From an uncultured Gammaproteobacteria bacterium (GTDB lineage Bacteria; Pseudomonadota; Gammaproteobacteria; Steroidobacterales; Rariloculaceae), in assembly GCA_964503125.1 (NCBI GenBank), contig CAZCZE010000020.1, positions 159,979-223,978 of the forward strand: a stretch of DNA of 64,000 nt, written 5' to 3'. The translations under genes were made by a program, and so were the position numbers. The notes beneath the pieces were generated by a model, which saw only the letters and a list, made by a program, of their open reading frames with translations, was not told the DNA's origin and made no database searches. Each line of letters starts with the position of its first letter. Position 1 is the first letter of the stretch. Positions 35,936 through 60,839 of the stretch are shown piece by piece.

Positions 35936-36445
35936 ATGACGACGCTACGACGTGCGCGCCTTGCCGCGCTTGGCGCGACGGCGCTGGTCCTCGCCGCGGC
36001 GAGCGCGCCGCGCCCCGTGCGTGCGCATCACTCGTTCGCCATGTACGACGAGAAGAAGACTTACGTCCTCACGGGCGTAGTGACTCGTATCAGTCCCGAC
36101 GCGAACCACTTGCAGATCTTCTTCTCGCCGCTCAATGAGGCGCGCAATGCCGTGGTTCGCGACGCCGCGGGCCAACCCGTCGTGTGGGCCGTCGAGCTGC
36201 GCGCCGCGAGCCAAGTCGCCCAAGAGAACGTGACCGTGGGGACGTTTCCTCCGGGAACCATCTTCAGCATCGGTCTCCATCCGTTACGCAACGGTTTACC
36301 GGCCGGGGGTCGCGGTAGGTCGGGTTTGTTCAAGTGCCCGGAGAAGACGCCCCCCGCGCCGGGTGAACATTGCGACGGCGTGGCCGGGTCGACATCGCAT
36401 GGTCAGGGGGCGCTGCCCGCGCCGACCAGCGAATGGCGACCTTGA
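35936..36445 (+). CDS. DUF6152-like small secreted protein (copy 1)
   Basis: 169 aa with a signal peptide ending ..PVRA followed by HHSFAMYDE. The family name is from memory and needs an HMM check. Confidence 0.7.
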   Translation: MTTLRRARLAALGATALVLAAASAPRPVRAHHSFAMYDEKKTYVLTGVVTRISPDANHLQIFFSPLNEARNAVVRDAAGQPVVWAVELRAASQVAQENVTVGTFPPGTIFSIGLHPLRNGLPAGGRGRSGLFKCPEKTPPAPGEHCDGVAGSTSHGQGALPAPTSEWRP

Positions 36446-36479
36446 AGCGCGCCACCGAATAGCGGCGCGCTACTCGCCG

Positions 36480-38696
36480 CTACGGCCGGGTGAGCGACAC
36501 GCGCTCGTGGTGCTCGAGATGCATTTGCGTGTCGGCCGTGGCGCCCGGCCAGTTGACCAATACGGTAATCGGTGCGCGATCCGCGTTCGAGGCGGCGCTG
36601 TCCACGAGGAACCGGCTGCCATCCGCGGTCACGGCGTAATGATCGCGAGCGTCCGCCGGCCCGCCGCCGAGCGGCGGGCGAAACAGCGGGCGCGGTGGAC
36701 CGAGCAACAGCGGCGCCGAGCCCGACACTTCGACCGACATGAGCTCGCGGTCCAGGGACATGAAGAAGATCTCGCGTTGGTCCGATCGCCATTGCGGTTG
36801 CCCGCCGCCGGCATGGGAGACGCGGTATTTCTTCTCGAGCTGCGGATAACTGACGACGTAGACCTCGATCGTGCCCGATTCGTCCGAGGCGTAGGCGATC
36901 CAACGGCCGTCCGGCGAGAAGCGTGCTTGCATCTCGTTGAACGCCGTTGCGAGCAGCGGCGCGGCGCGCTCGTCGGCGACCGATACGGCCCACAGATCGA
37001 GCTTCGTCTCGCCGTTCGCCTGTGTGTAGACGATGGTGTCGCCGCGCGGAGACCAGTCGTTGAGCACCTTCACGGCGCCGTCCCGCAATAACGGTCGGGC
37101 GACACCCTCGCTGGCCGTGGGGCGGACGAGCAGGTCGATGCCGTTGCGCGAGGTGAAGGCGACGCGGTCGCCGCCCGGTGCCCAGAGCGGCGCCATGGCA
37201 TCGGTCTCGAGTCTCGTGTACTCCGCTCGCGACAGGTTCGCGAGCCACAGACCCGGGTCGTTGGTGATGGAGCCCGTGGCGAGCACGGACGTCTCATCGG
37301 GCGACAGGCGCGGATTGAACAGGGTCGTCGGCACGGACAGCGAGCCGAGCTCGGCACCCGTCCGGTCGAACCAAGCGAGGTTTTGGCGCCTGGCGCCCTC
37401 GCGGAAAGCGACCAGGTTGCCGGCGGCGGACACGATGTCTCCATCCCCGAGTGACGGTGGCGAAACGTCGCGTGCGAGCAGAATCGAACGGCCCGTCGGC
37501 TCGAGGCGCGCCAGGTCGATCTCCTCGGCGACCAGCATGCCGTTTTGCACGTGCATGACATAGCGAGGGGGCGCGAAAACGGCGGGCGACTCCGTCGCGA
37601 ACAGCAGCTCCGCGCGCGCATCGTCGAGGCTCGCGACATAGACGCCCGTTCGCGCTGCGTCGAGGCTCATCGCGTGGTAGAGATAGCGCCGCCCGTCCGG
37701 GAGAAACTGCGGCCACGTGTGGGCGAGCTCCCGCGCATCGCGGTCGAGCCTCCTGAGCTCACGGATGGCGCCGTCCCCCGACGCGTCTACGGCATAGAGA
37801 CCCGTCGGCCAGTCGGCAAAAACGATCGTGTCATCCACCCCCCACGTGCCGCCGGCGGGTGCGATGTCGCCGTCGGCGACGATTCGCGTCGTCTCGCCGC
37901 GGAGCTCCACGATGCCGATGCTTCCGGCCGCGAAGAAACCGATTCGTCGGCCATCGGGTGACCAGAAAGGCTTCGACGCGCCGGCGGTGCCGGGCAAGCG
38001 TTTGGCTTCGGACGACTGCAACCGTCGCAACCATAGCGCGCTCTTGCCGGAGCTCACGTCGCGAGCGACGAACACGAGATGCTGCGCGTCGGGCGAGAGC
38101 ACGCCGCCCGACACGATGGCGGTGCCCGGCGGCGGCGGTAGGAACAAGCGGATTGCCGCTGTCGTATCGTTGCCCGGGCTCGGCGCGCGCGACGCGAGCA
38201 CGGCGAGCCCGCTCAGCGTCACGGCAGCGACCGCCGGCCAGAACAGGCGTCCGCGTCCACGGGCCGCGGCCTGCGCGGCGGTAGGCGCTGCGAAGGCCGC
38301 GGTCGGCGATTCGTGGGTCGGCGGCGCCAGGTCGGCGGCGACGGTCTCGACCGCGCACACGAAGCGATAGCCGCGGCGAGGAACCGTTTCGATGAGGTGG
38401 GGTGCATCGGGGTGATCGGCCAGCGCGCGTCGAAGGACCGAGATCGCATGGATCAAGCTGTCGTCGGTGACGATGACGTTGTTCCAGACGGCGCCGAGGA
38501 GCTCTTCTTTGTCGACGAGCCGGTCGCGATGCTCGATGAGGTAGACGAGCGTGTCGAATGCCCGCGAGGGCAGTGCAATCGTCTCGTGCCGCCCCCGAGA
38601 GACTTTCCGGGCAGCGACGTCGACCCTAAACGGGCCAAAGACATACGGGCCGCGCGCCGTGGCCGGTTTCGGCTCGTGAGTGGGGCCCGCGGACAT
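36480..38696 (-). CDS. Membrane-anchored winged-helix (CadC/ToxR-like) transcriptional regulator with periplasmic TolB-like beta-propeller
   Basis: The start MSAGPTHE is at the complement of 38694..38696, within track ORF 36480..38873. It has an OmpR/PhoB-type wHTH (..VPRRGYRF), one TM helix (LFWPAVAAVTLSGLAVLA) and repeated PD40/TolB-like blades (FSPDGRWIAY, WAPGGDRVAF, LSPDETSV). Confidence 0.85.
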   Translation of the reverse strand: MSAGPTHEPKPATARGPYVFGPFRVDVAARKVSRGRHETIALPSRAFDTLVYLIEHRDRLVDKEELLGAVWNNVIVTDDSLIHAISVLRRALADHPDAPHLIETVPRRGYRFVCAVETVAADLAPPTHESPTAAFAAPTAAQAAARGRGRLFWPAVAAVTLSGLAVLASRAPSPGNDTTAAIRLFLPPPPGTAIVSGGVLSPDAQHLVFVARDVSSGKSALWLRRLQSSEAKRLPGTAGASKPFWSPDGRRIGFFAAGSIGIVELRGETTRIVADGDIAPAGGTWGVDDTIVFADWPTGLYAVDASGDGAIRELRRLDRDARELAHTWPQFLPDGRRYLYHAMSLDAARTGVYVASLDDARAELLFATESPAVFAPPRYVMHVQNGMLVAEEIDLARLEPTGRSILLARDVSPPSLGDGDIVSAAGNLVAFREGARRQNLAWFDRTGAELGSLSVPTTLFNPRLSPDETSVLATGSITNDPGLWLANLSRAEYTRLETDAMAPLWAPGGDRVAFTSRNGIDLLVRPTASEGVARPLLRDGAVKVLNDWSPRGDTIVYTQANGETKLDLWAVSVADERAAPLLATAFNEMQARFSPDGRWIAYASDESGTIEVYVVSYPQLEKKYRVSHAGGGQPQWRSDQREIFFMSLDRELMSVEVSGSAPLLLGPPRPLFRPPLGGGPADARDHYAVTADGSRFLVDSAASNADRAPITVLVNWPGATADTQMHLEHHERVSLTRP

Positions 38697-38786
38697 CGTT
38701 CGTTCTTGGTTTTTCCGGAGTTTTCCGCGAGTTTCGGGACTTGCATTCGAGTCTAGCGTACGAATTCTCGGAGCGGCAAGCGGCGC
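38684..38786. repeat. 103-bp direct repeat, left copy
   Basis: GGCCCGCGGACATcGTTCGTTCTTGGTTTTTCCGGAG...GAGCGGCAAGCGGCGC is identical to 50201..50303 except for one C/T difference (38697 vs 50214). It contains the first 4 codons and the 5' leader of the regulator gene. Confidence 0.95.
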
Positions 38787-38832
38787 GACCGGCGCGCGTG
38801 TCGGGTGCCATTCATCGCAGGGACGCGACACC

Positions 38833-39507
38833 ATGGCGCGCGAGCGGGCGCGGCCGCGTGCTCCACCGTTCATCGATCCGCCGGGTTACGCACGCCACCG
38901 GCCCGAGGCGACGCTGCTCTACCAAGTCGTGGAGCGGCACTACCCCGAGTTTGTCGCCACGCGTGAAGCTGCTGGCCGACCTTTACCGAAGTACGTGCAC
39001 GAGGAGTTCGAGGCGTACTTGAGGTGCGGCCGCCTCGAGCACGGTTTTCTGCGCGTCCGCTGCGAGGACTGTCACGCCGAGAAGCTCGTCGCGTTCAGCT
39101 GTAAGCGCCGCGGCTTTTGTCCCTCCTGCGGCGCCCGGCGGATGACGGACAGCGCTGCGCTCCTGGCCGACGAAGTGTTACCGAAGAAGCCGCTACGCCA
39201 GTGGGTGCTGTCGCTGCCGATGGCGTTGCGCTTCCTATTGGCCACGGACCCCAGGGCGCTGACGCAGGTGCTTGGGATCGTCTATCGAACGATCTCGGCA
39301 CCCATTCTCAAGAGGGCGCGGCTGATGCGCGCGAGCGGTGCGACGGGCGCCGTGACGCTGATCCAGAGATTTGGGTCTGCGCTCAATCTCAATATTCACC
39401 TCCACATGCTGGTGCTCGACGGCGCGTACCTCGTCGACACCGAGCCACCGGTGTTCCGCCGGATCGCGCCGCCTAGCCTGGCGGAACTACAGGCGCTTGC
39501 GCTATGA
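38833..39507 (+). pseudogene. IS91-family (Y2/HUH rolling-circle) transposase, N-terminal fragment
   Basis: MARERARP... has a zinc-binding region, CEDCHAEKLVAFSCKRRGFCPSCGARRM, and an HUH-like NIHLHMLVLDGAY. Similarity ends around ..PPSLAELQALA at about 39500. Confidence 0.8.
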
Positions 39508-41268
39508 CCTGGCGCCGAGGAAATCCCGCAGGAATTCCTCGCGTGTCAAAGGGGGTCGAACGTCGTCTCCCAACAACTCCTGTGAAGAGGCTTCCTTTCT
39601 TAGGATGCGGTCATATTCAAACGGCTCTATGGTCTCGTCGCATAGCAGGATGAGGTACTCGACCGAGCGCTCCTGCCCTCTACGGTGGATGCGGTCTAGA
39701 CTTTGGAGATAGTGCGCAGCTTGGTTAGACATCGACTCGTACACCGCGTAGCGCGCTCGGTGCAATGTTAGGCCAGCGCCGGCAGCCGCAGGGTTGCCGA
39801 CGAAGAGCATGGTGACGTCATCCTCCTGGAACCTTCGAACGGCCTCCCGTCGGTCGTTGACCGCCGAGACTGAGCCGTCAATCCTCACAGGATTGTAGTT
39901 GCTGTAGCGAGAACAGAGCGCATTTACAGACGCCGTAAAGAATGACCATACGATGACCTTCTCGCCCTTTGCTTCGATAAGATCCGTAAGGATGCTGTCA
40001 AGCGCGGCAAGTTTCGCGGGAAGGCCGCAGCCAAAGGCCGAATCTATCCCAATTGGGTTGGAGCAAATTTGGAGGAGAGCCGTGCGCCTCGCCATGAAAG
40101 ACGCCAGATTCCGTTTGAAGCTTATTTCGTCAGTGGCGCGGACATCCTCCAGCAAGCCGGACATCGCACTCTCATACAATCGCCGCTGAGCTGGCGGAAG
40201 CGGGAGTATGATGCGCCGGAACGCGCGAGCGGGTAGATCGGGCAAGACTGCGCCCTTAAGTCGACGGATGTACACGCCGCGCGCCTCAATCGTCGCCGCG
40301 ACTACGTCCCTAGCGGCAACAGGATCGGTAGGCACCTCAACGCCCGAAAACGTCTCACCATCGTCGGCGATGTTGAATTGTTCAACAAGGTCAACCGCGC
40401 TATTTGGGGCGGGCGTCCCGCACAAGACGATACATCGACCAGCTTCGCGACGGAGCCTTCGTAATGCGCGAGCCCGCTGGGCTTCGGCGTTCTTCACAAA
40501 GAAGCTCTCGTCCACAATCAGTATGGCCCGCCCTTTCTCTCCCTGTAGTAGATGGCGTATCCGGATCTCAAGCTGCGTTGCCGTTTCGAAGTTGGTAACA
40601 AATATCTCGGCAGGCTCGTCCAATGTCGCACGCTTCTCTGCCTCATGGCCTACAACGGCAGCGGCCCGGTACTTGCTACCAAAAAACCTTGTGAGGTCAT
40701 GCACCCATTCGAGCACCATGTTCTTCGGCGCGAAGATTACCGCGCGTCCGACCAAGCCCTGTTCGCGAAGCCTGTCAAACGCGAACAGGGCCTCCACCGT
40801 CTTACCAACACCCTGCTCGTCAAATATGCAGAGGCCGCGGACATCTGGATGCGCCGCCAACGCGACGGCCGTAACTTGGTGTGCATCCAGAGCATCGATC
40901 CGCTCGTAGCCCTGCAACCACATTTTCGCGGTCTCTGGGGAGGCAATGGCTGTCCGGCAGGCCGCGAGGGCAGCGCTGTGCCACTGACGCCGATGTCGCG
41001 CTGACGTAGCCGCCGCGAGAACGCCCGCTGAGACTGCAAAGGACCATCCGTCAAGCGCAATACGGCAGGCTTCGAGTTCCAACACGTCAACCAGCGCACC
41101 GCCCGCAACCGGATCAAGTTGCAGTGAGATGCCCGCTGTCCGAAGCGTCCGCTCTAAAGTGCGCAGTCTGGCGCTGGGACCAGGCTTGATGAAACAGCGA
41201 CCATCGCGCGCGAGGTTCGCATGGGCATCAAGCTGCGGCATTGGAATCCTCAGGCTGGCTGTTGTCAC
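39502..41268 (-). CDS. SNF2-family helicase-like ATPase
   Basis: 588 aa with motif I DEQGVGKT, motif II VDESFFVKN, motif III LCGTPAPNS and helicase-C QSLDRIHRRGQ. The alternative start MPQLD is 27 nt downstream. The stop sits right at the left junction of the cassette. Confidence 0.85.
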   Translation of the reverse strand: MTTASLRIPMPQLDAHANLARDGRCFIKPGPSARLRTLERTLRTAGISLQLDPVAGGALVDVLELEACRIALDGWSFAVSAGVLAAATSARHRRQWHSAALAACRTAIASPETAKMWLQGYERIDALDAHQVTAVALAAHPDVRGLCIFDEQGVGKTVEALFAFDRLREQGLVGRAVIFAPKNMVLEWVHDLTRFFGSKYRAAAVVGHEAEKRATLDEPAEIFVTNFETATQLEIRIRHLLQGEKGRAILIVDESFFVKNAEAQRARALRRLRREAGRCIVLCGTPAPNSAVDLVEQFNIADDGETFSGVEVPTDPVAARDVVAATIEARGVYIRRLKGAVLPDLPARAFRRIILPLPPAQRRLYESAMSGLLEDVRATDEISFKRNLASFMARRTALLQICSNPIGIDSAFGCGLPAKLAALDSILTDLIEAKGEKVIVWSFFTASVNALCSRYSNYNPVRIDGSVSAVNDRREAVRRFQEDDVTMLFVGNPAAAGAGLTLHRARYAVYESMSNQAAHYLQSLDRIHRRGQERSVEYLILLCDETIEPFEYDRILRKEASSQELLGDDVRPPLTREEFLRDFLGARS

Positions 41269-42550: not shown

Positions 42551-42594
42551 TGCGGTTAGTGTGTGTGCATGTGAAAGACGCGCGCTGTGACAAG

Positions 42595-43395
42595 TCAGCT
42601 CTCGTCTTCATCGAGTTGATCGACCATAAAGCTCCCGCGGGTCTCCTCGAACGCCGCCACGAAACGAGCAGGCGGTCTCAACCCTAACTCCGTCACTACT
42701 TTCGGAATCTCGACGTGCAGCGCCGCGTAGGCTCGCTGCTTAGCCTTCCTGAAAGCGGCGGGCTTCATCCCCAAAGAGGCCGCCGCCATCTGTGACTGCA
42801 CGTCGAAGTCCTTGCGAGCGAAGTCGAACTGGAACGTCGAGAGATGTCGGATCAGTGCACGCTGCTTGAGCGTCAATTTCTCAAGAGCCGCCTCGACGAC
42901 AACCACTGCCCATGACCCGTCCGCCTCCACGTCGCTGAGAGTTTCCTCAACAGCGACCACAGCCCAGGCCGCGGGCACGAGCGTTGACCCATCGACGGAT
43001 GCGTCTGTTGCATCTGCGCTTGCCGGCGCCGGTGCAGACAATGCCTCAACCGAACTGACCAACTCATTGCGCCGTCGGCGGTGCAGCGTAGCGCCGCAGT
43101 TCCAAGCCGATCGCGCTAGATAGGCGTAGGGATCGGAGATTCGTTGGCCGTGTCTGCGCTCGACGAACGCCTCCAGAGCCTCCGCAATACAATCCTCAGC
43201 ATCCGAGATCTGTAGATTGAGACCGGATGACACGAGCCGCAGCAGGCGCGGTACTCCTTCCCCGACCATGACCTGGTAGAAGGCGGCTCGATCAGCTGCT
43301 GCCCAGAGTTGCGCCAGGCGTGTCGCCAATGACAACTGTTCCTCTTCATCTTCGTTTGACACGCCGGCCCGCTTCCCCGCCTCCGTTCTATCCAT
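42595..43395 (-). CDS. ECF-sigma-factor-like protein
   Basis: The start MDRTEAGK is at the complement of 43393..43395, within track ORF 42595..43521. It is region-2-like (ISDAEDCIAEALEAFVERR...DPYAYLARSAWNCGATLHRRRRNE) and region-4-like (LTLKQRALIRHL...QMAAASLGMKPAAFRKAKQRAYAAL), with an Ala/Asp/Val-rich linker between. Confidence 0.55.
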   Translation of the reverse strand: MDRTEAGKRAGVSNEDEEEQLSLATRLAQLWAAADRAAFYQVMVGEGVPRLLRLVSSGLNLQISDAEDCIAEALEAFVERRHGQRISDPYAYLARSAWNCGATLHRRRRNELVSSVEALSAPAPASADATDASVDGSTLVPAAWAVVAVEETLSDVEADGSWAVVVVEAALEKLTLKQRALIRHLSTFQFDFARKDFDVQSQMAAASLGMKPAAFRKAKQRAYAALHVEIPKVVTELGLRPPARFVAAFEETRGSFMVDQLDEDES

Positions 43396-43637
43396 CACAT
43401 AGACGCGAGCCGTGACACTCGGCAGCGATCGCGCGCTCGCACACGCCAGGGGAAGCGTAACAAGCACATAGACTTGCACGGCGCCTGCATAGATGCGTAG
43501 TTGCGCACCTATGTGCGTCAATGCTCACTGACGCACAAATATGCGCTAATACAAGCCAAAGCCCGTCTGTTTGCGTCTTACAGCACGAACCGGCAGAATC
43601 TTGCGCTGCCTTAGCGCAGCGATAACGAAGGGCGTCG

Positions 43638-50348: not shown

Positions 50349-52520
50349 ATGCCAGCCGTCCGAGCTCTGAACGTCCTTGCGTTGTGCGTGCTCGCGGCCG
50401 CCGGCCTGCGCGTTTTGGGTCAGCCTGCGACATCCGAGCCCATCGCCGTCGATTCGGACGACATCGCCGGGGTCGTGACCGGACCGAACGGCCCGGAGGC
50501 CGGGGTCTGGGTCATTGCCGAGACCGAGGATCTGCCGACGAAGTTTCGCAAGATCGTCGTGACGGACGACCGCGGCCGCTACCTGTTGCCCGATCTGCCG
50601 CCCGCCAACTACGTGCTCTGGGTGCGCGGCTACGGCCTCGTCGACTCGCCGCGTGCGCGCTCTGCCCCAGGCCGAATCGTCGCACTGCCGGCCGTGATCG
50701 CGCCCGACGCGCGCGCGGCCGCGCAGGTCTATCCGGCCAATTACTGGTACTCGCTGATCGAGCTGCCGCAACCCGACCAGTTCCCCGGTACCGGCGCCGG
50801 CGGCAACGGCATCGAAGCGGGCATGGCGACCCAGCACCATTGGATCAATCAGATCAAGACGGGCTGCGTCGTTTGCCACCAGCTCGGCAATCTCGCGACG
50901 CGCGATTTTCCGCCGGGCCTCGGGCAGTTCGAGTCCGCGTACGACGCTTGGGATCACCGCACGCAAGTGGGCCAGGACGGCACGGCGATGATCAGCGCCA
51001 TCAATGCGCTCGGCCGCCGTCCCGCTCTGACGATGTGGGCGGATTGGACCGACCGCATCGCGGCCGGCGAGCTGCCGCCGCAGCCGCCGCGCCCGCAGGG
51101 CATCGAGCGCAATCTCGTGCTGACACTCTGGGAGTGGGGCGGCGAGGCGACGTTCGCGCACGACGAGTTGTCGTCCGACAAGCGCAATCCGCGAGCCAAC
51201 GCCAACGGCCCGATCTACGGCGTCGATTGGGGCAACGACGGCTTCCTCACGCTCGACCCGAACACGCACACCGCGACCGAGGTGCGGATCCCGGTCCTCG
51301 ACCCGACGACGCCGCCGGGTAAGCCGCAATCGATGCCGCGGCCATCGCCGTACTGGGGCACCGAGCTCTACTGGTACGACCCGGCCATCACGAATCATGC
51401 GGCGATGGACAGCAAAGGCCGCGTCTGGATGTCGTCGCGGTTCCGCCGGCCCGAGAGCCAGCCCGAGTTCTGTCGCAACCATCCGTCGGCGGCGTTGTCG
51501 CCTCAGGAGTCGAGCTTCCGCCAGGTGCAGTATTTCGACCCGCGGACGAAGGCGTTCCACCAGGTCAACATCTGCTTCGACACGCATCACGTGCAGTTCG
51601 CGTCCGACGATGATGAGACGCTCTACGGTAACGGCGTGTTCAGCGGCGCGATCGGCTGGGTCAACACGCGCGTGCTCGACGAGACCGGCGACGAGGCGGC
51701 AGCGCAAGGATGGTGCCTGCCGTATTACGACGTCGACGGCAACGGCAAGATCGAAGCCGGCGGCGTCGACCGCTATGTGTTCGCGCACCTCGGCCAACCG
51801 ACCGGGCGGCTCGCGGGCATGCGGATCCCCGCGGGCGTGATCTACAGCGTCATTCCGCACCCCACCGACGGCAGTGTCTGGGGGGCCGTGCCCGGACCGA
51901 TGCCGGGCCGCATCATCCGCGTCGACCCGAAGACGTGCGTTTCCGAGGTCTACGAGCCGCCGTTCAACAATCCCGAGGTCAACGTGAACGGTTACACGCC
52001 GCGCGGCATCGACGTCGATTCCTACGGCGTGATCTGGACGGCACTCGCCGGTAGCGGTCATCTCGCGAGCTTCGATCGCCGCAAGTGCAGAGTCTTAAGC
52101 GGCCCCGCGTCGACGACGGGGCAGCACTGCCCCGAAGGCTGGACGCTGTATCGAACGCCGGGGCCGAGCTTCAAAGGTGCAACCGACGCGATCGCCGTCG
52201 ACATGTCCTACTACAACTTCGTCGACCGCTTCAACACGCTCGGGCTCGGCCCCAACGTGCCGATCGCGAACGGGACCAACTCGGACTCGTTGCTGGCGCT
52301 GCAACCCGACGGCCGCTGGGTCGTTCTCCGCGTGCCGTATCCGCTCGGCTTCTTCACGCGCGGCATGGACGGTCGCATCGACGACCCGAATGCGGGCTGG
52401 AAGGGTCGCGCCCTCTACGGCGACTACGGACAGAACGCCGTTTGGCACATCGAGGGCGGCAAGGGCACGCGCAGCTCCGTCGTGAAGTTCCAGCTGCGTC
52501 CGGACCCGCTCGCGAAGTAG
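50349..52520 (+). CDS. Secreted carboxypeptidase-regulatory-like domain protein with one CxxCH motif and C-terminal beta-propeller-like region
   Basis: 723 aa with a signal peptide and GVVTGPNGPEAGVWVIAE...VTDDRGRYLLPDLPPANYVLWV (CarboxypepD_reg-like). It also has QIKTGCVVCHQLGN (CxxCH) and repeated ..G.VW.. blade-like segments. Confidence 0.75.
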   Translation: MPAVRALNVLALCVLAAAGLRVLGQPATSEPIAVDSDDIAGVVTGPNGPEAGVWVIAETEDLPTKFRKIVVTDDRGRYLLPDLPPANYVLWVRGYGLVDSPRARSAPGRIVALPAVIAPDARAAAQVYPANYWYSLIELPQPDQFPGTGAGGNGIEAGMATQHHWINQIKTGCVVCHQLGNLATRDFPPGLGQFESAYDAWDHRTQVGQDGTAMISAINALGRRPALTMWADWTDRIAAGELPPQPPRPQGIERNLVLTLWEWGGEATFAHDELSSDKRNPRANANGPIYGVDWGNDGFLTLDPNTHTATEVRIPVLDPTTPPGKPQSMPRPSPYWGTELYWYDPAITNHAAMDSKGRVWMSSRFRRPESQPEFCRNHPSAALSPQESSFRQVQYFDPRTKAFHQVNICFDTHHVQFASDDDETLYGNGVFSGAIGWVNTRVLDETGDEAAAQGWCLPYYDVDGNGKIEAGGVDRYVFAHLGQPTGRLAGMRIPAGVIYSVIPHPTDGSVWGAVPGPMPGRIIRVDPKTCVSEVYEPPFNNPEVNVNGYTPRGIDVDSYGVIWTALAGSGHLASFDRRKCRVLSGPASTTGQHCPEGWTLYRTPGPSFKGATDAIAVDMSYYNFVDRFNTLGLGPNVPIANGTNSDSLLALQPDGRWVVLRVPYPLGFFTRGMDGRIDDPNAGWKGRALYGDYGQNAVWHIEGGKGTRSSVVKFQLRPDPLAK

Positions 52521-52524: not shown

Positions 52525-53388
52525 ATGGTCAGGTCCCCATCGCTCGCGTTGCGAATTCTCGCCGGCGTCGTACTCATCGGCCTCGGCATCCCCCTCGAGG
52601 CACAGCGCGATCTTTCGGGCTCATGGGGCCAACGTTTTCACGAAGATCTGCCCGAGCGCGGCGGCGGACCCGAGATCGGCGATTACACGGGCTTGCCGGT
52701 CAACGATGCCGCGCGGCTGCGCGCCGACTCGTGGGACGCGGCCAAGTGGACGATGCCCGAGCGTCAGTGCGAGCCGCATCCTGCCGACTACGGCCCGCGC
52801 GGTCCCGCAAGCCTGCGCATCTCGAGCACCGTCGACCCCATCTCTCAGGACGTCGTTTCCTGGGAGATCACGGTCATGTGGGGACTGCCGCACCGGACGA
52901 TCTACATGGACGGCCGTCCGCGTCCCTCCGCGAACGCCCAGCACAGCTGGCAGGGATTCTCGACGGGGGAGTGGGAGGGCGACATGCTCGAAGTGACGAC
53001 CACCCATCTGAAGGAAGGCTGGCTGCGGCGCAACGGCCTGCCCCGCAGCGACAAGGCCACGCTCGTCGAGTACTTCATCCGTAGCGAGAACTACCTGACG
53101 CTCGTCACGGCCGTCATGGACCCCGTGTATCTGACCGAGCCGCTCGTCCGCACTTCGGATTGGGTGCTCGATCCCGGCTTGCAGCTCAGCCCGTTCTCGT
53201 GCATTCCGGCGATCGAGATCGAGCGGCCGCGCGGGACCGTTCCGCATCATCTGCCGGGCACGAACACGTTCCTCCCGGAGTTCGCGACGCGTCACGGCTT
53301 GCCGTTCGACGCCACGCGCGGCGGTGCTGCGACGATGTATCCCGAGTACGTTCCGGAGCTCTCGCGCGGCCTGCGTGTGGCGAGGTAG
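52525..53388 (+). CDS. Secreted protein of unknown function ('medium' family, member 1)
   Basis: 287 aa with a signal peptide, DLSGSW, IYMDGRPRP and WQGFSTGEWEGDMLEVTTTH. This motif set is shared with 54345.., 60842.. and the C-termini of 34579.. and 61659.. Confidence 0.7.
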   Translation: MVRSPSLALRILAGVVLIGLGIPLEAQRDLSGSWGQRFHEDLPERGGGPEIGDYTGLPVNDAARLRADSWDAAKWTMPERQCEPHPADYGPRGPASLRISSTVDPISQDVVSWEITVMWGLPHRTIYMDGRPRPSANAQHSWQGFSTGEWEGDMLEVTTTHLKEGWLRRNGLPRSDKATLVEYFIRSENYLTLVTAVMDPVYLTEPLVRTSDWVLDPGLQLSPFSCIPAIEIERPRGTVPHHLPGTNTFLPEFATRHGLPFDATRGGAATMYPEYVPELSRGLRVAR

Positions 53389-53391: not shown

Positions 53392-54348
53392 ATGGTTCGA
53401 ACGAGCGGCTACTGGCCTGCGCTTGGCACTGTGCTCCTCGTCGGCTACTCGTTCGAGGCCCGTGGCGAGCTAGACGTCCTGCCGGTGCAGGGTAACGTGT
53501 TCGTGATCGTGGGCCCGGGCGGCAACACGACCGTGCAGGTGGGGCACGAGGCTGTCGTCATCGTCGACGCGCAAACGGCGGCAGCTGCCGAGGAGGTCGT
53601 CGCCGCGGTCGCAAAGCTGAGCGGCAAGCCGATTCGACACATCATCAATACGAGCGCGGACTCCGACCACACGGGCGGTAACGAGATCCTGTCGCGTGCC
53701 GGGACCTATGTGCGGCTCATCGACTCGTTCGATCCCCGCGGCTCGAGCACCCAAGCGGCGATCATCGCGCACGTCAACGTGCTCGCGCGCTTGAGCGCGC
53801 CGACGGGCGCCGTGGCCACGGCCCCTGCCGGGGCGTGGCCGAGCGACACCTACTTCACGGCCGACTGGGCGCTGTTCGTCAACGGCGAGGCCGTGCAGCT
53901 GTTGCACGTTCCCGCTGCGCACACCGACGGCGACACGATGGTTTTCTTTCGTCGTTCCGATGTGATCAGCACGGGCGACATCTTCAGCCCTGCCCGCTAC
54001 CCACGGTTCGATCGCGTGCGCGGCGGCAGCATCGCCGGCGTGATCGAGGGCCTGAACCGCATTATCGACCTCGCGATTCCGGGCGAGCGCCAGGAGGGCG
54101 GCACGGTCGTGATACCCGGCCACGGGCGCATCAGCGACGAGACCGAAGTCGCGAACTATCGCGATATGGTCACGATCGTTCGCGACCGCGTTGCCGCGCT
54201 GGTCGGCACGGGCATGACGCTCGAGCAGGTGCTGGCCGCCAAGCCGACGTTCGACTACGACGGCATCTATTCCGACGCGGCCGGCGGCGGAACGGGCGAC
54301 TCGTTCGTCGCGGCGGTCTATCGCGATCTCAAGGGAGAAGACGAATGA
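53392..54348 (+). CDS. Secreted MBL-fold protein with degenerate metal motif
   Basis: 318 aa with the MBL-fold pattern (VIVDAQT..., HVPAAHTDGDTMVFF, VIPGHG). SADSDH stands where HxHxDH is expected. Confidence 0.7.
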   Translation: MVRTSGYWPALGTVLLVGYSFEARGELDVLPVQGNVFVIVGPGGNTTVQVGHEAVVIVDAQTAAAAEEVVAAVAKLSGKPIRHIINTSADSDHTGGNEILSRAGTYVRLIDSFDPRGSSTQAAIIAHVNVLARLSAPTGAVATAPAGAWPSDTYFTADWALFVNGEAVQLLHVPAAHTDGDTMVFFRRSDVISTGDIFSPARYPRFDRVRGGSIAGVIEGLNRIIDLAIPGERQEGGTVVIPGHGRISDETEVANYRDMVTIVRDRVAALVGTGMTLEQVLAAKPTFDYDGIYSDAAGGGTGDSFVAAVYRDLKGEDE

Positions 54349-55166
54349 CGGCCCGTGCGCTAAGGCGACGCGTGCTCGAGCTGGCCGCGCTCGCGGCGCT
54401 GTGGCTCGGCGTCGCGGCGCCTCCGCCGGCTCGCGCGCAGTTTGGCCCGCCACCGCCCCCCGATACGCGCAGCCCACGCGAGCGCGCGCTGATCGACATC
54501 ACGGGCCAGTGGGTGGCCGTCGTCACCGAGGATTGGCGTTGGCGCATGGTCACGCCGCCCGTCGGCGATACCGCGAGCTTGCCGCTGAACGAGCGCGGTC
54601 GGACGGTTGCAGCGCAGTGGAGTCTCGAGCGGGACCGGGCGGAAGGCAATCTCTGCCGCCCGTTCGGCGTGCCGGGTCTCATACGGCAGCCGACGCGAGT
54701 ACGCATCGTCTGGGACGACGACGACACGCTCTCGCTCGAGTTCGATGCCGGCCGTCAGGTCCGGCGCTTCGAGTTTGTGGACACGCCATCCGGTGAGCCG
54801 TCGCTGCAAGGCCACTCCGCCGCGCGCTGGTTCAGGCAGCCGCAGTCGCGCGGAGTGTTCGGCGTGCGCACGCCGCCGCAGGGCGGCTCTCTCGTCGTTC
54901 GGACCACTCGACTCAGAAGCGGTTACCTCCGCGCCAACGGCGTGCCGTACAGCGACCGCGCGACGGTCAAGGAATTTTTCAATACGTTCGCGTTGCCGGG
55001 CGACGGCGGCACATGGCTCATCGTGACCACGGTCGTGGACGATCCCGAGTACCTCACGACCGAGCTCATATTGAGCTCACAGTTCAAGAAGGAGACGGGG
55101 CGAGCGGGGTGGAACCCTCGGCCCTGCGATATCGCCGCTCCGCCCCTACTCGCACCGAACGGTTAG
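54345..55166 (+). CDS. Secreted protein of unknown function ('medium' family, member 2, divergent)
   Basis: ATG at 54345 (MTARALRRRVLELAALAALWLGVAA) within track ORF 53835..55166. It has DITGQW, LCRPFGVPG and GVPYSDRATVKEFF...DDPEYLTTE. It overlaps the previous stop by 4 nt. Confidence 0.7.
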   Translation: MTARALRRRVLELAALAALWLGVAAPPPARAQFGPPPPPDTRSPRERALIDITGQWVAVVTEDWRWRMVTPPVGDTASLPLNERGRTVAAQWSLERDRAEGNLCRPFGVPGLIRQPTRVRIVWDDDDTLSLEFDAGRQVRRFEFVDTPSGEPSLQGHSAARWFRQPQSRGVFGVRTPPQGGSLVVRTTRLRSGYLRANGVPYSDRATVKEFFNTFALPGDGGTWLIVTTVVDDPEYLTTELILSSQFKKETGRAGWNPRPCDIAAPPLLAPNG

Positions 55167-55171: not shown

Positions 55172-55549
55172 ATGCAACGCTACGCGCTCACGATCATCGG
55201 TTTGCTGGCCGCCTCGTCCGCAGGGGCGCATCACTCGTTCACGGCGACGTACGATGAGTCGGGGCGCGTGCAGATCGAAGGGGAAGTCGTGCAGTTTCTG
55301 TTCAGGAATCCCCACTCCATGATCCACGTCGCGGCGCCCGACGCGGCCGGCACCGTGCAACGCTGGGCCGTCGAATGGGCAGGCGTTGGGACGTTGAGCG
55401 GCGAGGGCGTGACGCGCGCGACACTGCGCATCGGTGATCGCGTCGTCATCTTTGGCAATCCCGGACGCAACGCCGCCGACCACCGTTTGCGGTTGTTGTC
55501 GATCGAGCGGCCGCTCGACGGCTGGAAATGGCAGGGTACCTTCGAGTGA
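55172..55549 (+). CDS. DUF6152-like small secreted protein (copy 2)
   Basis: ATG at 55172 (MQRYALTIIGLLAASSAGA|HHSFTATYDE) within track ORF 55013..55549. 125 aa with an NPH motif (FRNPHS). Confidence 0.75.
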   Translation: MQRYALTIIGLLAASSAGAHHSFTATYDESGRVQIEGEVVQFLFRNPHSMIHVAAPDAAGTVQRWAVEWAGVGTLSGEGVTRATLRIGDRVVIFGNPGRNAADHRLRLLSIERPLDGWKWQGTFE

Positions 55550-56600: not shown

Positions 56601-56672
56601 CCCCCTGTGGAGCCGTCTCGCGACTGCCGTGATGCTGGGCCGTCACGGTTCGGTTTATGATGAGAATGCTAT

Positions 56673-58217
56673 ATGACATTACGAGATCGAGGAAGACGCC
56701 GCACGACGGTAGTAGTGGGAGTGCTGGCCTCGGTCGCCACGGCCGCCGTCGCGGTCGGCTATTACGAGATGCGTGCATGGAGTGCGGACGTTCCGCGCGT
56801 CTGGGACGAAGCGGCGCTCAAAGGTTGGGCGACGCCGCTCGCGGGTCTCGGCGAAGCGCCGACGCATATGTCGCCGCAGGAGTACTACGCGCTGCCCGAG
56901 GAGAACCTCCGCAGCTATCCGCTCTACATGCCGGATCGCGAGCCGGCAGGCTTATGGGAGCAGATCCAAATCGTCGGCCCGCAGCCGCTCATCGAACCCA
57001 CCAGGCTGGCCACCAAGGCCGATTGGATCGCGGCCGGCGAGCGCGTGTTCCTCGACTCCGTCGTGCTCAAGACGTTCGATCCGCAGGTCATTGCGATGGC
57101 CCGTAGTCAGCAGGAGATGGCAGCGCGCGGCACCGGCCCGCTGCCCGACGGCACCGTCAATGGCTTGCGCTGGGTGCCGACGAAGGACGGCGTGGCACTC
57201 GGCTTCACGAACTGTAGCGCCTGTCATCTTCTCTATCTGCCCGACAATACGCCTGTGCCCGGCGCCTCGTCGTTCGCGATGCCGAACAACTTTCGTAACG
57301 GCCTCGGTGCCGTCATTCGCGAGGCCGAGCGGACGCTGCCCGGCGAAGTGCCGTTCGCGCTGGCAGGCTCGATCGGAGTCCAGGCAGCCCAAGCTTACGG
57401 CGTGCCGTGGGTCAACGATCCCGTGGGCGAAAAGCTCGAGGAACTGACGGCGTCTGAGTTCAATGCCTATATCGGCGCGGGAATTCGCGGCGGCGGCGTC
57501 GCGCGCTGGAACGGCAGCATCTTCTATCCGGCCAAGATCCCGGACCTCATCGGGCTAAAGGACCGCAAGTACCTCGATCACACCGGGACTCATCTGCACC
57601 GCAATATCGGCGACCTCATGCGCTACGCCGCGCTCGTGAGCTTCGCCGACGATATCGACTTCGCGGGGCAGCGCGTGATTCTTCCCGGCACCGAGCGTTT
57701 CCGCACGCGCTTATCGGACGAAGCGCTGTATGCGCTCGCCCTCTACGTGTATTCGCTCGAGCCGCCGAGCAATCCGCATCCGTTCGATGCGCGGGCCGAA
57801 GCAGGGGAGATGATCTTCGAGCGCGAGCGCTGCGCCCGTTGTCACACACCGCCGCTCTACACGAACAACAAGCTCACTCTGGCGGTAGGTTTTACGCCGC
57901 CCGAAGACTCGCCGCTCGACATCGTTCGAACGTCGGTCGGCACCGATCCGGGTTTGGCGCTGCGCACGCGCAAGGGCACGGGGTTCTACAAGATTCCCTC
58001 GCTTAAGGGTCTCTGGTATCGAGGGCATTACTTGCACGACGGCTCGGTCGCCAGCCTCGAGGAGCTGTTCGACCCAAACCGATTGAGCGACACTCACGTG
58101 CCCGGCGGTTTCGCGCCGCCAGGGACCGTCACGCGCGCTATTCGCGGTCACGAGTTTGGACTTACGCTCACCACCGCAGAGCGGGCGGAGCTCATCGCGT
58201 TTCTGCGTACGCTTTAG
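56673..58217 (+). CDS. Di-haem cytochrome c peroxidase-like protein
   Basis: 514 aa with an N-terminal TM/signal and two CxxCH motifs (NCSACHL, RCARCHTPPLYTNN). The second has the CH.PP context typical of the CCP/MauG family. Confidence 0.7.
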   Translation: MTLRDRGRRRTTVVVGVLASVATAAVAVGYYEMRAWSADVPRVWDEAALKGWATPLAGLGEAPTHMSPQEYYALPEENLRSYPLYMPDREPAGLWEQIQIVGPQPLIEPTRLATKADWIAAGERVFLDSVVLKTFDPQVIAMARSQQEMAARGTGPLPDGTVNGLRWVPTKDGVALGFTNCSACHLLYLPDNTPVPGASSFAMPNNFRNGLGAVIREAERTLPGEVPFALAGSIGVQAAQAYGVPWVNDPVGEKLEELTASEFNAYIGAGIRGGGVARWNGSIFYPAKIPDLIGLKDRKYLDHTGTHLHRNIGDLMRYAALVSFADDIDFAGQRVILPGTERFRTRLSDEALYALALYVYSLEPPSNPHPFDARAEAGEMIFERERCARCHTPPLYTNNKLTLAVGFTPPEDSPLDIVRTSVGTDPGLALRTRKGTGFYKIPSLKGLWYRGHYLHDGSVASLEELFDPNRLSDTHVPGGFAPPGTVTRAIRGHEFGLTLTTAERAELIAFLRTL

Positions 58218-58250
58218 AACACTCGATAAAAGACAAAGAGGAGTCGAGCC

Positions 58251-59120
58251 ATGCGGATAGCCGCGTTCACCGTCTACCTACTTGCCGCTGCGGCCATGCT
58301 TGCAGCCGGCGCTCAGGAGCGGCCCGGAGCCGACGCGGGAACGTCGAGCGCGCAGCTCGCGACGCTTCCGCAAACACCGGGCGCGAAGGGCGATCAGCAA
58401 CGCCACTACTTGTTCGCGGCGGCGGGTGAGGAGATGCCGTACCGTCTCTATGTTCCGCCGTCCTACGACTCGGCGCGAAAGACCCCGCTCGTCGTTGCGT
58501 TGCACGGCTACGGCGGCGACCAGAACTACTTCTTCGCGGCGCTGCCGACGCTTCCCGAGCTCCTCGACCAGCATGGGTTCATCTTCGTGGCGCCGATGGG
58601 CTACTCGAAGAGCGGTTGGTATGGTGCACCGCTCGACATTCCCGGCAACCGGCCGCGCAATAGCGGCCAAGCGATCCCGCCCGTGACGCAGACGCCCGAG
58701 GAGATGCGGCGCGAGCGCGCGTTGAGCGAAGCCGACGTCATGAACGTGCTCGAGATCGTGAGCCGCGAGTACAGCGTCGACCCCGACCGCGTCTACCTCA
58801 TGGGTCATTCGATGGGCGGCATGGGCACGTACGTGCTCGGCCAGAAATACGCCGAGCGGTGGGCCGCCATCGCGCCGATGTCGGGCACGCTCGCCGACGC
58901 GACGTACTCGCTGGATCGCCTGACGAACGTCGCCGTCATGCTGTCGGCCGGTTCGACGGAAACCGCGACCGTTGCCGCTGCGCAGGCGCAGGTCGGAGAG
59001 ATGAGCAAGATGGGCATCGTGACAGGGCTGTGGATTGAGCCCAACGGCACGCACGGGTCGATGATCGCGCCGACCCTGCCGAAGGTGCTCGATTTCTTTG
59101 CCGACAAGGTGCGCCGATGA
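58251..59120 (+). CDS. Secreted esterase/alpha-beta hydrolase
   Basis: 289 aa with a signal peptide, PLVVALHGYGGD and the nucleophile GHSMGG. Confidence 0.8.
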   Translation: MRIAAFTVYLLAAAAMLAAGAQERPGADAGTSSAQLATLPQTPGAKGDQQRHYLFAAAGEEMPYRLYVPPSYDSARKTPLVVALHGYGGDQNYFFAALPTLPELLDQHGFIFVAPMGYSKSGWYGAPLDIPGNRPRNSGQAIPPVTQTPEEMRRERALSEADVMNVLEIVSREYSVDPDRVYLMGHSMGGMGTYVLGQKYAERWAAIAPMSGTLADATYSLDRLTNVAVMLSAGSTETATVAAAQAQVGEMSKMGIVTGLWIEPNGTHGSMIAPTLPKVLDFFADKVRR

Positions 59121-59140
59121 TCCGGCGCAAGGGGGAGACG

Positions 59141-60388
59141 ATGAATCTTTGTGATCGGCGCAGCGTCTTGACAGGGCTCGGCGCGGTCGGGGCCAACTTA
59201 TGGTTGCCTCCGTCTGCCGACGCGCTCGGCCTCGCAGACGACAAGATCAAGGTCATTCGCTACTTCAGCAATGCCGGTGATGCCGCCGGGCGGCGCGGCC
59301 AGCCCATGACCAACCAGTCCTCGAACGTCGTGATCATCGAGACGGAAGGGGGCTTGACCGGCATCGGCGAGGGTGGCGAGCCCACGTCGATGGACGAATG
59401 CGCGAGCATGCTGATCGGCCAGGACCCGTTTCGCATCGACCAGCATTGGCAGCGCATGCTGCGCGGCTATTTCTTTCCGGCCGGCCGCGAGAAGCAGCAC
59501 TCGCTCGGCGCGCTCGATCTGGCGCTCTGGGATCTCAAGGCCAAAGCTCTCGACGTGCCGGTCTGGCAACTCCTCGGCGGCAAATCGCGCGACTACGTCG
59601 AATGCTATTCCACGGTCTTTCCTAGGCCGGCCAACGGCACGCTCGAAGATGCGGCGCGCGCCTGCATCGACGCCGGGTTCCGCTGCTTCAGGCATGCCAC
59701 CGACAATCCGCGCGAGCGCGAGGTCGATCGTTTCAAGCTCGTGCGGCGCATGCACGAGGACTGCGTGCTGTTGCACAAAGGCGCGGGCGACGGCGGTTGG
59801 GCGATCGATTTCCACACCGAGCTCGACCCGCCCGACGCCATCAACCTCGCGACGCTGCTCGAGCCGCTGCATCCTTATTTCTGCGAGGACCTGATCCGCA
59901 GCGAGGGCGTGGACTCCTACGCCATGATCCGCGAGCGGACGCGCGTGCCGATCGCGGTCGGCGAGCAGTTCGGTTACAAGTGGGACATCAACACGCTGAT
60001 CGAGCGGGAGCTCATCGATTACACGCGTTGCACGTTGCCCAACGTCGGCGGTATCAGCGAGTTCATGAAGATCATCGCGCTCGCGGAGACGCATTACGTC
60101 GGCATGGTTCCGCACTTTACGGGCCCGATTGCGGAAGCCGCGCTCGTGCATTGCCTCACCGCCACGTCGATCACGTCGTTGATGGAGATGCTCGGCGACG
60201 GCAGCCGCACGTATCCTCATCTGCCGAAGATGTACGACTTCAAGGAAGGCAAGATGTGGCCCAATGACCGGCCGGGGCTCGGCGTCGAGCTCGACATGAG
60301 CAGGCTCACGCTGCTCGGCGAATACGCCACGTATCGCGCCGGCATGCTAATGAACCGCCGCCCGGATGGCTCGTTCACGAACTGGTGA
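59141..60388 (+). CDS. Enolase-superfamily enzyme (mandelate racemase/muconate lactonising, sugar-acid dehydratase-like) with twin-arginine signal
   Basis: I chose the ATG at 59141, preceded by GGGGGAG; the track start is 59117. The N-terminus is MNLCDRRSVLTGLGAVGANLWLPPSADA. It has an MR/MLE fold pattern (GIGEGG, LDLALWDLKAK, metal ligands D..E..E region, CEDLI). Confidence 0.85.
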   Translation: MNLCDRRSVLTGLGAVGANLWLPPSADALGLADDKIKVIRYFSNAGDAAGRRGQPMTNQSSNVVIIETEGGLTGIGEGGEPTSMDECASMLIGQDPFRIDQHWQRMLRGYFFPAGREKQHSLGALDLALWDLKAKALDVPVWQLLGGKSRDYVECYSTVFPRPANGTLEDAARACIDAGFRCFRHATDNPREREVDRFKLVRRMHEDCVLLHKGAGDGGWAIDFHTELDPPDAINLATLLEPLHPYFCEDLIRSEGVDSYAMIRERTRVPIAVGEQFGYKWDINTLIERELIDYTRCTLPNVGGISEFMKIIALAETHYVGMVPHFTGPIAEAALVHCLTATSITSLMEMLGDGSRTYPHLPKMYDFKEGKMWPNDRPGLGVELDMSRLTLLGEYATYRAGMLMNRRPDGSFTNW

Positions 60389-60449
60389 GACTGGCTACGA
60401 CGCTAACGACGCCAGCGGCGGCAGCACGATTACTTGGAGGAACACTCTG

Positions 60450-60839
60450 ATGTCACGATTATTCTCGGCGGCGACGCTGGCTGCCCTGTTGCTCGGCAGC
60501 CAAAGCCAGGCACACCATTCATTCGCCGTCCACTACGATTCCAACAAGATCATCACCAAAGAAGGAGTCGCGACGGAGTTTCGCTTTGCCAATCCCCACG
60601 GCATCCTGATGTTGGACGTCACCAACGAGAGCGGCGCCGTCGAGCAGTGGACCGTGGAGACGACGTCGCCGAGTTATATGCGCCGTTTCGGCTGGACACC
60701 GGACATGATCAAGCCGGGCGATCGAGTCATCGTGGAAGGTTGGGCGTCGCGCGATGGGTCGCACCTCATGCGTATTCGTTCCGTCATGCGCCCCGACGGC
60801 ACGCAGCTCGGGCGCCCCAATCAGGCGGGTGATGAATAG
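60450..60839 (+). CDS. DUF6152-like small secreted protein (copy 3)
   Basis: ATG at 60450, preceded by GGAGG (MSRLFSAATLAALLLGSQSQA|HHSFAVHYDS), within track ORF 60366..60839. 129 aa with FANPHG. Confidence 0.75.
   Translation: MSRLFSAATLAALLLGSQSQAHHSFAVHYDSNKIITKEGVATEFRFANPHGILMLDVTNESGAVEQWTVETTSPSYMRRFGWTPDMIKPGDRVIVEGWASRDGSHLMRIRSVMRPDGTQLGRPNQAGDE

Follow-up and report, generated by a model that had tools for sequence, protein, structure and literature searches.

DUF6152 proteins of a gammaproteobacterial locus as candidate metal-binding OB-fold proteins with a predicted N-terminal His-His

Chelation of a metal ion by a free N-terminal histidine has led to major discoveries, among them the lytic polysaccharide monooxygenases (LPMOs) and CopC, followed in 2025 by four more classes from bacteria. 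The histidine at the N-terminus is an intrinsically strong chelator (PMC12537917, PMC10952591), and the four recent classes, which comprise the domain-of-unknown-function (DUF) families DUF4198 and DUF6702 and the "anglerases" Ang-1 and Ang-2, were described under the term "signal strapping", in which a conserved histidine comes right after the leader (PMC12537917). All four N-terminal-histidine classes bound metals experimentally, with DUF4198 binding nickel and DUF6702 binding nickel, cobalt and copper (PMC12537917). DUF6152 (Pfam PF19649) is not mentioned in that paper (PMC12537917). In the present work we analyse three DUF6152 genes, called c1, c2 and c3, which lie in a stretch of 64,000 nucleotides from an uncultured gammaproteobacterium (contig CAZCZE010000020.1; the whole stretch is referred to as the window). 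The best reading of the sequence evidence is that DUF6152 is a candidate, built on an oligonucleotide/oligosaccharide-binding fold (OB-fold), for membership among the secreted proteins whose N-terminal histidine chelates a metal.

DUF6152 and the signal-strapped classes are all small secreted bacterial DUFs with a conserved histidine straight after the signal peptide, and the signal-strapped classes, like DUF6152, have one or two further conserved histidines 17-31 residues later. Metal capture by a non-canonical (facial or tri-histidine) brace has been proposed for the signal-strapped classes and may apply to DUF6152 as well, and in the neighbourhoods of both unknown proteins and TonB-dependent receptors are abundant. 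The families differ in that DUF6152 has no sequence relationship to DUF4198, DUF6702, Ang-1 or Ang-2 (no Pfam match at E<=10) and is modelled as an OB-fold, whereas DUF4198 and DUF6702 are beta-sandwiches (PMC12537917). Conservation after the leader is also stricter in DUF6152, in which about 97% of sequences have His-His together with an invariant glutamate, than in the validated DUF4198 and DUF6702, in which the first histidine is present in 79% and 65%, respectively. Finally, DUF6152 is often found with a dedicated barrel-protein partner, unlike the signal-strapped classes.

The three genes in the window, with the positions of the leader and of the residues of interest, are as follows.

c1: 35936..36445, plus strand, DUF6152 paralogue of 169 aa, Pfam score 38.6 bits, coordinates checked by translation; leader 35936-36025, His-His 36026-36031, DANH histidine 36107-36109, WAVE glutamate 36194-36196
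c2: 55172..55549, plus strand, DUF6152 paralogue of 125 aa, Pfam score 79.4 bits; leader 55172-55228, His-His 55229-55234, NPH histidine 55313-55315, glutamate 55373-55375
c3: 60450..60839, plus strand, DUF6152 paralogue of 129 aa, Pfam score 88.9 bits; leader 60450-60512, His-His 60513-60518, NPH histidine 60597-60599, glutamate 60657-60659

All three open reading frames (ORFs) are thus present where the original prediction had placed them, and all belong to DUF6152, with scores above the curated gathering threshold of 27 bits for PF19649. A six-frame scan with single sequences and the family hidden Markov model (HMM) found no fourth copy in the 64 kb window, no NCBIfam model matched c1-c3, and the DUF6152 proteins had no match in Pfam at E<=10 besides DUF6152 itself. 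Judged by their pairwise identities of 29-33%, the three genes are old paralogues from three subfamilies and not recent duplicates. Taken from the shortest to the longest, their predicted mature lengths are 106, 108 and 139 residues; c1 has a C-terminal Pro/Gly-rich extension with two cysteines, and its homologue in the syntenic locus L006, which is 86% identical, carries the same extension. A Shine-Dalgarno sequence precedes the ATG of c1 (GAGGAG) and c3 (GGAGGA), while that of c2 is weak (AGGGA only). The family is large: an exhaustive HMMER search with c2 as the query found relatives in 6318 clusters (50% identity) at E<=1e-3. Literature searches for DUF6152 or PF19649 returned no paper mentioning either, and public records name the homologues "hypothetical" or "DUF6152 family protein". 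About 20 homologues carry the JGI label "DNA/RNA endonuclease YhcR", which is most likely a misleading OB-fold cross-hit and not a function.

The predicted leaders of c1 (MTTLRRARLAALGATALVLAAASAPRPVRA), c2 (MQRYALTIIGLLAASSAGA) and c3 (MSRLFSAATLAALLLGSQSQA) each stand directly before HHSF, and each has the Sec-type arrangement of a positively charged n-region, a hydrophobic core and a c-region, ending in VRA, AGA and SQA, respectively. Signal peptidase I most probably cuts after the conserved A-x-A, so that the mature chain would begin with His-His. Cleavage at this point, as originally predicted, is favoured at VRA/HH, AGA/HH and SQA/HH by a simple check which looks for a hydrophobic 9-mer, a small residue at -1 and a small or aliphatic residue at -3. 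Across the family, His-His follows a leader of at least 12 residues in 245 of 268 sequences; residue -1 is alanine in 226 of these 245, residue -3 is small or aliphatic, and 234 of the 245 pass the signal-peptidase I check. The c-region is mostly 6-9 residues long across the family, and positive n-regions are present.

A second histidine follows His1 after 27 residues in c1 and after 28 in both c2 and c3. The order in which the original prediction had assigned the motifs to the copies does not stand, and the histidine lies in DANHL in c1, RNPHS in c2 and ANPHG in c3. Column counts were taken from 131 diverse full-length representatives, which are 38-60% identical to c2. The most conserved positions are Ala at -1 (109/131), His1 (124/131), His2 (123/131), Ser3 (110/131), Tyr8 in mature numbering (117/128), the Asn-Pro-His motif (Asn 111/133, Pro 130/133, His 131/133), a glutamate at the end of strand 3 (128/133) and a Gly-Asp pair before strand 4 (Gly 127/133, Asp 120/131). 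The apparent exceptions are mostly truncated or chimeric metagenomic ORFs.

The co-occurrence of these residues was followed in 317 sequences whose N-terminal region is intact, brought together in one combined HMM alignment. His-His is found at the aligned position in 307 of the 317, a pattern that exceeds chance by far. Among these relatives, 301 have both the second histidine (His29 in c3 numbering) and the strand-3 glutamate (Glu49), six have His29 and lack Glu49, and none lacks His29, so that the NPH/ANH histidine, which would be the second conserved histidine of a brace, is present in 307/307. The family-wide alignment which the original prediction called for therefore finds His1, His2 and the NPH histidine to be near-invariant. 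The remaining ten sequences have no His-His: five of them lack both His29 and Glu49, and these are the only five sequences in which His29 is absent, while two more lack Glu49. Nine of these ten sequences group in a single clade (P0173, P0391-P0398) in which decay is stepwise: all nine have DPH in place of NPH, seven carry Gln instead of Glu, and in five the His is replaced by Tyr or Glu. The structural motifs GD and RPxDGW are kept intact in this clade; the nearest sisters with His-His, P0399 and P0400, retain all four residues. The tenth, P0233, is an independent exception in which YE replaces HH and NTH replaces NPH. In addition, all 30 copies in 20 genome loci (from Steroidobacteraceae, other Gammaproteobacteria, Chromatiales, Rhodospirillaceae and Devosia) retain A/G-HH and the second histidine, including very distant alphaproteobacterial forms of the type AHHGW...GNPHG. 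We read His1, His2, His29 and Glu49 as probably forming one functional or evolutionary unit, because the four residues are conserved together and lost together.

An AlphaFold2 (AF2) model of mature c3, computed from a 143-sequence alignment, is an OB-fold with a predicted local distance difference test score (pLDDT) of 89.2 and a predicted template modelling score (pTM) of 0.82. The model opens with a short helical turn (residues 4-7) and a strand 1 that is long and bent (8-24), followed by loop L12 with NPH (27-29), strand 2 (31-37), strand 3 (43-49, with Glu49 as its last residue), a helix (53-58), Gly-Asp (69-70), strand 4 (71-79) and strand 5 (85-92). His29 and Glu49 should be neighbours in this model, because both flank the hairpin of strands 2 and 3, in which residue 31 pairs with residue 49. 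Foldseek comparison with the PDB returned only generic OB-folds (SSB, PriB, tRNA-synthetase anticodon-binding and cold-shock domains) with E-values of 4e-4 to 5e-3 and TM-scores of 0.45-0.6; no metalloprotein was among these PDB matches, and sequence and profile searches of the PDB with DUF6152 found nothing significant.

Covariation was computed from 275 mature sequences (effective number of sequences, Meff, 144) by mutual information with average product correction (MI-APC) and by mean-field direct coupling analysis (mfDCA), with 5460 pairs ranked. Both methods reproduce pairs from the model's strand ladders (G76-M86, E17-R71, T37-V43, L34-V48 and I31-T47), and the rankings couple the N-terminal residues 3, 6 and 7 to the flanks of NPH and the glutamate. 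V6-T50 ranks 16 by mfDCA and 19 by MI-APC, and V6-A26 ranks 26 and 14, respectively; S3-N27 (rank 9) and H7-W46 (rank 4) are high by mfDCA and fall outside the top 40 by MI-APC, and H7-I31 ranks 229 by mfDCA and 5 by MI-APC. This pattern suggests that the N-terminal peptide packs against the NPH/Glu corner. Couplings by mfDCA among the invariant columns (H1/H2-H29, G18) were set aside as artefacts of invariance and pseudocounts.

The canonical copper braces (LPMO families AA9-AA17, CopC, PmoB/PmoF, X325/Bim1 and, with a single histidine, YcnI, PMC10952591) have in common with DUF6152 a distal histidine and a mature N-terminal histidine which is exposed, in DUF6152 by prediction, through signal-peptide cleavage. 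They are Ig-like or cupredoxin-like beta-sandwiches, whereas DUF6152 is modelled as an OB-fold, has the extra invariant His2 and glutamate, and has no copper-gene context. Because its modelled fold is an OB-fold, DUF6152 is not a member of any known histidine-brace family; the kinship to LPMOs, CopC or PmoB which the original prediction had raised is contradicted by this model, by its top PDB matches (SSB and PriB) and by a Pfam search that gave no other family at E<=10.

At the level of the fold, the nearest functional analogues of DUF6152 would be CusF and SilF, periplasmic Cu(I)/Ag(I) chaperones which have been called the only OB-fold proteins devoted solely to metal-ion binding (PMC10656224). 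Both they and DUF6152 are small periplasmic OB-folds with strand order 1-2-3-5-4 and with a ligand histidine (putative in DUF6152) where the strand 2 region begins. Histidines near the mature N-terminus are present in CusF as well. DUF6152 differs in lacking the Met-Met-Trp Cu(I) site of CusF, as no conserved methionine pair is present in the conservation table, and in not lying beside a CusCBA-type pump. Homology to CusF was not detected, with an hhalign probability of 3.4% against a CusF sequence and no CusF match in Pfam, and neither CusF nor SilF was among the top 50 Foldseek matches. The best structural matches, SSB and PriB, share with DUF6152 a five-strand barrel in which a helix connects strands 3 and 4; they are cytoplasmic nucleic-acid binders, whereas DUF6152 is exported and shows no sequence similarity to them.

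Each copy is also linked, with gaps of 2-10 nt, to an unannotated secreted protein of one of two types, X or Y. The genes concerned are the following.

X1: 34579..35925, plus strand, secreted, 448 aa, unassigned in Pfam, stops 10 nt upstream of c1
u723: 50349..52520, plus strand, opens the c2 operon, CarboxypepD_reg-like domain, one CVVCH haem-c motif
u287: 52525..53388, plus strand, third Y-family member, in the c2 operon, Y-HMM E 5.3e-60
MBL: 53392..54348, plus strand, protein of metallo-beta-lactamase (MBL) fold in the c2 operon, Pfam Lactamase_B 9e-12
Y1: ~54345..55166, plus strand, secreted, ~273 aa, unassigned in Pfam, stops 5 nt upstream of c2
Y2: 60842..61645, plus strand, 267-aa secreted protein, starts 2 nt after the c3 stop
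X2: 61524..63044, plus strand, second X-family protein, 3' of Y2, true start uncertain, lipobox-like VLQGC

The c2 operon thus runs u723 - u287 - MBL - Y1 - c2, and u723 has a homologue of 85-90% identity in the syntenic L006 and no other family assignment. X1 shares 48% identity with X2, Y1 is related to Y2 more distantly (25% identity, E 5e-8), and the Y-family HMM matches Y1 at 1.6e-41. X and Y queries match overlapping regions of L003, and X is a larger relative of Y. No Pfam or NCBIfam family was found for either, and the Y family has 845 matches at E<=1e-3, including cultured Sphingomonadales; Altererythrobacter, Sphingobium and Porphyrobacter are among the genera with Y homologues. An AF2 model of Y2 (pLDDT 88.9) is a calycin/FABP-like beta-barrel with a helical N-terminal part; Foldseek finds a weak likeness to FABP/CRABP calycins (E 3e-3), and sequence and profile searches of the PDB with Y found nothing significant. 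C109, C247, E202 and D221 of Y2 are invariant, and H153, H160, H181 and H194 are near-invariant.

The pairing recurs in other genomes. A c3-type gene followed by a Y2 homologue is syntenic in L001-L015, and the pair of a c1-type gene and X recurs in L005 and L006, where X adjacency rests on tblastn. In L030 and L031 a 273-aa Y1-like gene overlaps the DUF6152 start of a c2-type copy, the MBL gene adjoins the c2-type copy in these two loci (on the 3' side) and in L001, and L030 has a 283-aa equivalent of u287. In an adjacency scan of 34 rows (the 30 locus copies and four window rows, one of which is a secondary fragment of the c2 ORF), a neighbour of Y/X type lies on the same strand and no more than 400 nt away in 25 rows; contig ends cut several of the remaining rows short. 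Other DUF6152 subfamilies stand alone in varied contexts: His-His members without a Y/X neighbour keep all four residues in L018-L020, L024, L025 and L028, and P0392 and P0393, which lack His-His and lie on long contigs, have no Y partner. As a separate observation, in L004 (9172-11377) and L002 a stretch of 3.5 kb holds as many as three or four DUF6152 genes, some of them in tandem with no Y gene in between, which indicates rapid paralogous expansion.

Taking this evidence together, we lean towards the view that DUF6152 binds a metal through its N-terminal histidines. His1, His2, the NPH/ANH histidine in the loop between strands 1 and 2, and the strand-3 glutamate would form a single mononuclear transition-metal site. 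Like a histidine brace, this site would recruit the free N-terminal histidine for chelation; unlike one, it would be built on an OB-fold with a larger set of ligands (up to three histidines, the amino group and the glutamate). The equal conservation of His2 and the glutamate points to a site that may be richer than the canonical three-nitrogen T-shape. In this organism each copy would be co-translated with its secreted partner, either the calycin-like barrel Y or its larger relative X, and DUF6152 would be the small metal-bearing partner in a two-protein periplasmic module, in which it could carry metal for the barrel protein or donate metal to it or, alternatively, act as a redox or Lewis-acid centre on a ligand that the barrel holds. 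Family membership, the leader with its cleavage motif, the conservation and joint loss of the residues, the OB-fold model and the synteny with the partners are direct results of the analysis, and it is from these that we infer the actual cleavage, metal binding, complex formation and function. An extension of this mechanism, which we regard as speculative and quite improbable, is that DUF6152 is the catalytic metal subunit (Cu, Ni or Fe) of a two-component periplasmic enzyme and docks onto a Y/X barrel which would hold a hydrophobic or polymer-derived substrate. If true, such an enzyme would be an oxidative or Lewis-acid tool of soil Steroidobacteraceae-like bacteria, multiplied into many paralogous pairs per genome, and would represent a new enzyme class similar in logic to the LPMOs and unrelated to them.

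Several points weigh against metal binding by the N-terminal histidines. Cleavage was judged by a rule of thumb, and the joint loss of the four residues rests essentially on one clade and the singleton P0233. The placement of the N-terminus in the model is of modest confidence (mean pLDDT 70 for residues 1-10), as has likewise been reported for apo DUF6702 (PMC12537917), and a simple OB topology puts loop L12 at one end of the barrel and the start of strand 1 at the other, so that the first seven residues would have to fold back. The covariation signal which couples the two regions may be phylogenetic, since Meff is only 144. Lastly, the neighbourhoods are not enriched in genes for metal transport or resistance.

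This last point comes from a Pfam census of 126 proteins neighbouring DUF6152, in which the counts were DUF6152 itself 16, beta-lactamase-family hydrolases 6, major facilitator superfamily (MFS) transporters 6, TonB-dependent receptors 4, glyoxalase-type proteins 3 and esterases 2, so the gene context of DUF6152 is catabolic rather than metal-homeostatic. The neighbours in the window are of the same kind, and include secreted esterases, MBL-fold proteins, an enolase-superfamily enzyme whose leader is Tat-like, a PETase-like hydrolase, and the mono-haem 723-aa and di-haem proteins. Metal-type neighbours were seen near three partner-less copies, each within ~2 kb: a NicO nickel/cobalt transporter beside P0400 / L024, a DUF1007 protein in L019, and a Metal_resist protein with an extracytoplasmic function (ECF) sigma factor beside P0392 / L021. 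These are weak, anecdotal hints (n=3) which concern nickel/cobalt and general metal stress and not copper. Use of the neighbourhood as a guide to the identity of the metal was rejected, given the catabolic census and the three anecdotal neighbours.

Among the alternatives, the one closest to the original prediction is a canonical copper histidine brace, in which the amino group and N-delta of His1 and N-epsilon of the NPH histidine would hold copper in a T-shaped N3 geometry in an LPMO-like enzyme or a CopC-like carrier. The N-terminal histidine and conserved distal histidine of all three copies and nearly the whole family would fit such a site, the near-invariant Tyr8 (117/128) recalls the axial tyrosine of some LPMOs, and the secreted esterases and hydrolases nearby would suit an oxidative helper enzyme. 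However, every known brace protein has a beta-sandwich or cupredoxin-like fold and not an OB-fold, Pfam matches at E<=10 are limited to DUF6152, and the equal invariance of His2 and the glutamate implies a different coordination sphere. CopA/B/C/D, Cus, Sco and PCuAC are absent from the most frequent Pfam families of the 126 neighbours, no copper-homeostasis gene was found in the neighbourhoods examined, and the few metal-related neighbours are of the nickel/cobalt type (NicO, DUF1007), so that we consider a copper brace distinctly unlikely and do not retain the role for copper which had been proposed. The CxxCH proteins that were said to accompany each copy were part of that proposal; they are present near c2 (one CVVCH, in u723) and c3 (two, in the gene at 56673-58217), and are absent near c1 and not conserved in the 20 other loci. 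The same distribution bears on a further alternative, that DUF6152 is a haem-handling OB-fold protein (a CcmE-like chaperone or hemophore-like protein) whose histidines are axial ligands and which serves neighbouring c-type cytochromes. CcmE is itself a periplasmic OB-fold, one CcmE chain was matched weakly (E 1.1), and CxxCH genes do lie in the c2 and c3 regions. Against this, the CcmE match is not significant and the PDB profile search finds nothing, the CxxCH neighbours lack conservation, and DUF6152 has neither a membrane anchor nor a CcmE-type C-terminal histidine motif, all of which makes a haem role highly improbable.

An explanation that involves no metal is that His-His, His29 and Glu49 form a binding surface for a protein or small ligand, or a metal-free acid/base catalytic site; the N-terminal peptide might, for example, plug into the calycin barrel of Y or X. 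The pairing with Y/X is tight and conserved, P0392 and P0393, which lack His-His, also lack a partner, the classical ligand-binding face of OB-folds is the one formed by strands 2 and 3, and the context is catabolic and not metal-related. On the other side, many partner-less His-His members (L018-L020, L024, L025 and L028) retain all four residues, which are therefore not maintained solely for the partner, and a free N-terminal His-His beside a histidine and a glutamate is an intrinsically strong chelator; moreover, four out of four tested N-terminal-histidine DUF classes bound metals (PMC12537917). We regard a metal-free role as unlikely on balance. The chance that the leader is instead an uncleaved signal anchor, which would leave His-His internal at the membrane surface, appears very small: the long c-region of c1 (SAPRPVRA) speaks for it, but 92% of sequences have alanine at -1, position -3 is taken by a small or aliphatic residue, most c-regions span 6-9 residues and the n-regions carry positive charge. 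These are hallmarks of signal peptidase I, and an anchor would leave the strict conservation at -1 without explanation.

The concept of signal strapping is already known, and what is new here is a credible candidate metalloprotein family, proposed on sequence grounds, with an unusual fold and a dedicated partner. DUF6152 comprises more than 6000 clusters at 50% identity from environmental Proteobacteria. If metal binding by its N-terminal histidines is confirmed, the family would provide a new structural solution for N-terminal-histidine metal sites and the first functional handle on the two unannotated families Y and X, and it might reveal a periplasmic activity that is important in soil carbon turnover. 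The Y family merits a description of its own.

Three further genes of the window lie close to the DUF6152 operons.

Regulator: 36480-38873, minus strand, 797 aa, OmpR/CadC-type winged-helix domain followed by PD40/TolB-like beta-propeller repeats
Di-haem protein: 56673..58217, plus strand, upstream of c3, cytochrome c peroxidase/MauG/MbnH-like by sub-threshold NCBIfam/Pfam matches, two CxxCH
Enolase-superfamily (MR_MLE) enzyme: 59117-60388, Tat-like leader DRRSVLTGLG

A homologue of the 797-aa regulator lies between the c1 and c2 clusters in L006, and because of this placement the regulator is a candidate sensor-regulator of the DUF6152 operons. No homologue of the di-haem gene was found near DUF6152 in the 20 other loci, and its interpretation as part of an MbnP/MbnH-type copper system was rejected, as the matches are far below threshold and the gene is not conserved near DUF6152. 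The Tat-like leader of the MR_MLE enzyme implies a probable periplasmic location, which would be unusual for its superfamily; homologues of this enzyme adjoin DUF6152 genes in L002, L006 and L010. Outside the DUF6152 operons, 25280-27580 encodes a Planctomycete-type multidomain cytochrome with two CxxCH and the domains PSCyt1, PSD2-5 and PSCyt3 (DUF1585/1587/1588/1592/1595), in an apparently gammaproteobacterial genome.

Between c1 and c2, an IS91-family transposase gene is apparently split within 38680-50114, and its parts flank a block of ~10 kb with 58% GC, compared with ~67% in the remaining window. The features of this region are as follows.

Transposase part: 38680-39507, Zn-binding domain and Y2_Tnp positions 1-29
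SNF2 helicase: 39502-41268, minus strand, in the 58% GC block
C5 DNA methylase: 43813-45168, plus strand, in the 58% GC block
Type ISP restriction-modification enzyme: 46026-49457, minus strand, in the 58% GC block
Transposase part: 49716-50114, Y2_Tnp positions 149-178

The block is a recently inserted mobile defence island, because L006, a metagenome-assembled genome (MAG) locus which is syntenic and island-free, runs uninterrupted from the homologue of the regulator directly to the homologue of the 723-aa gene.

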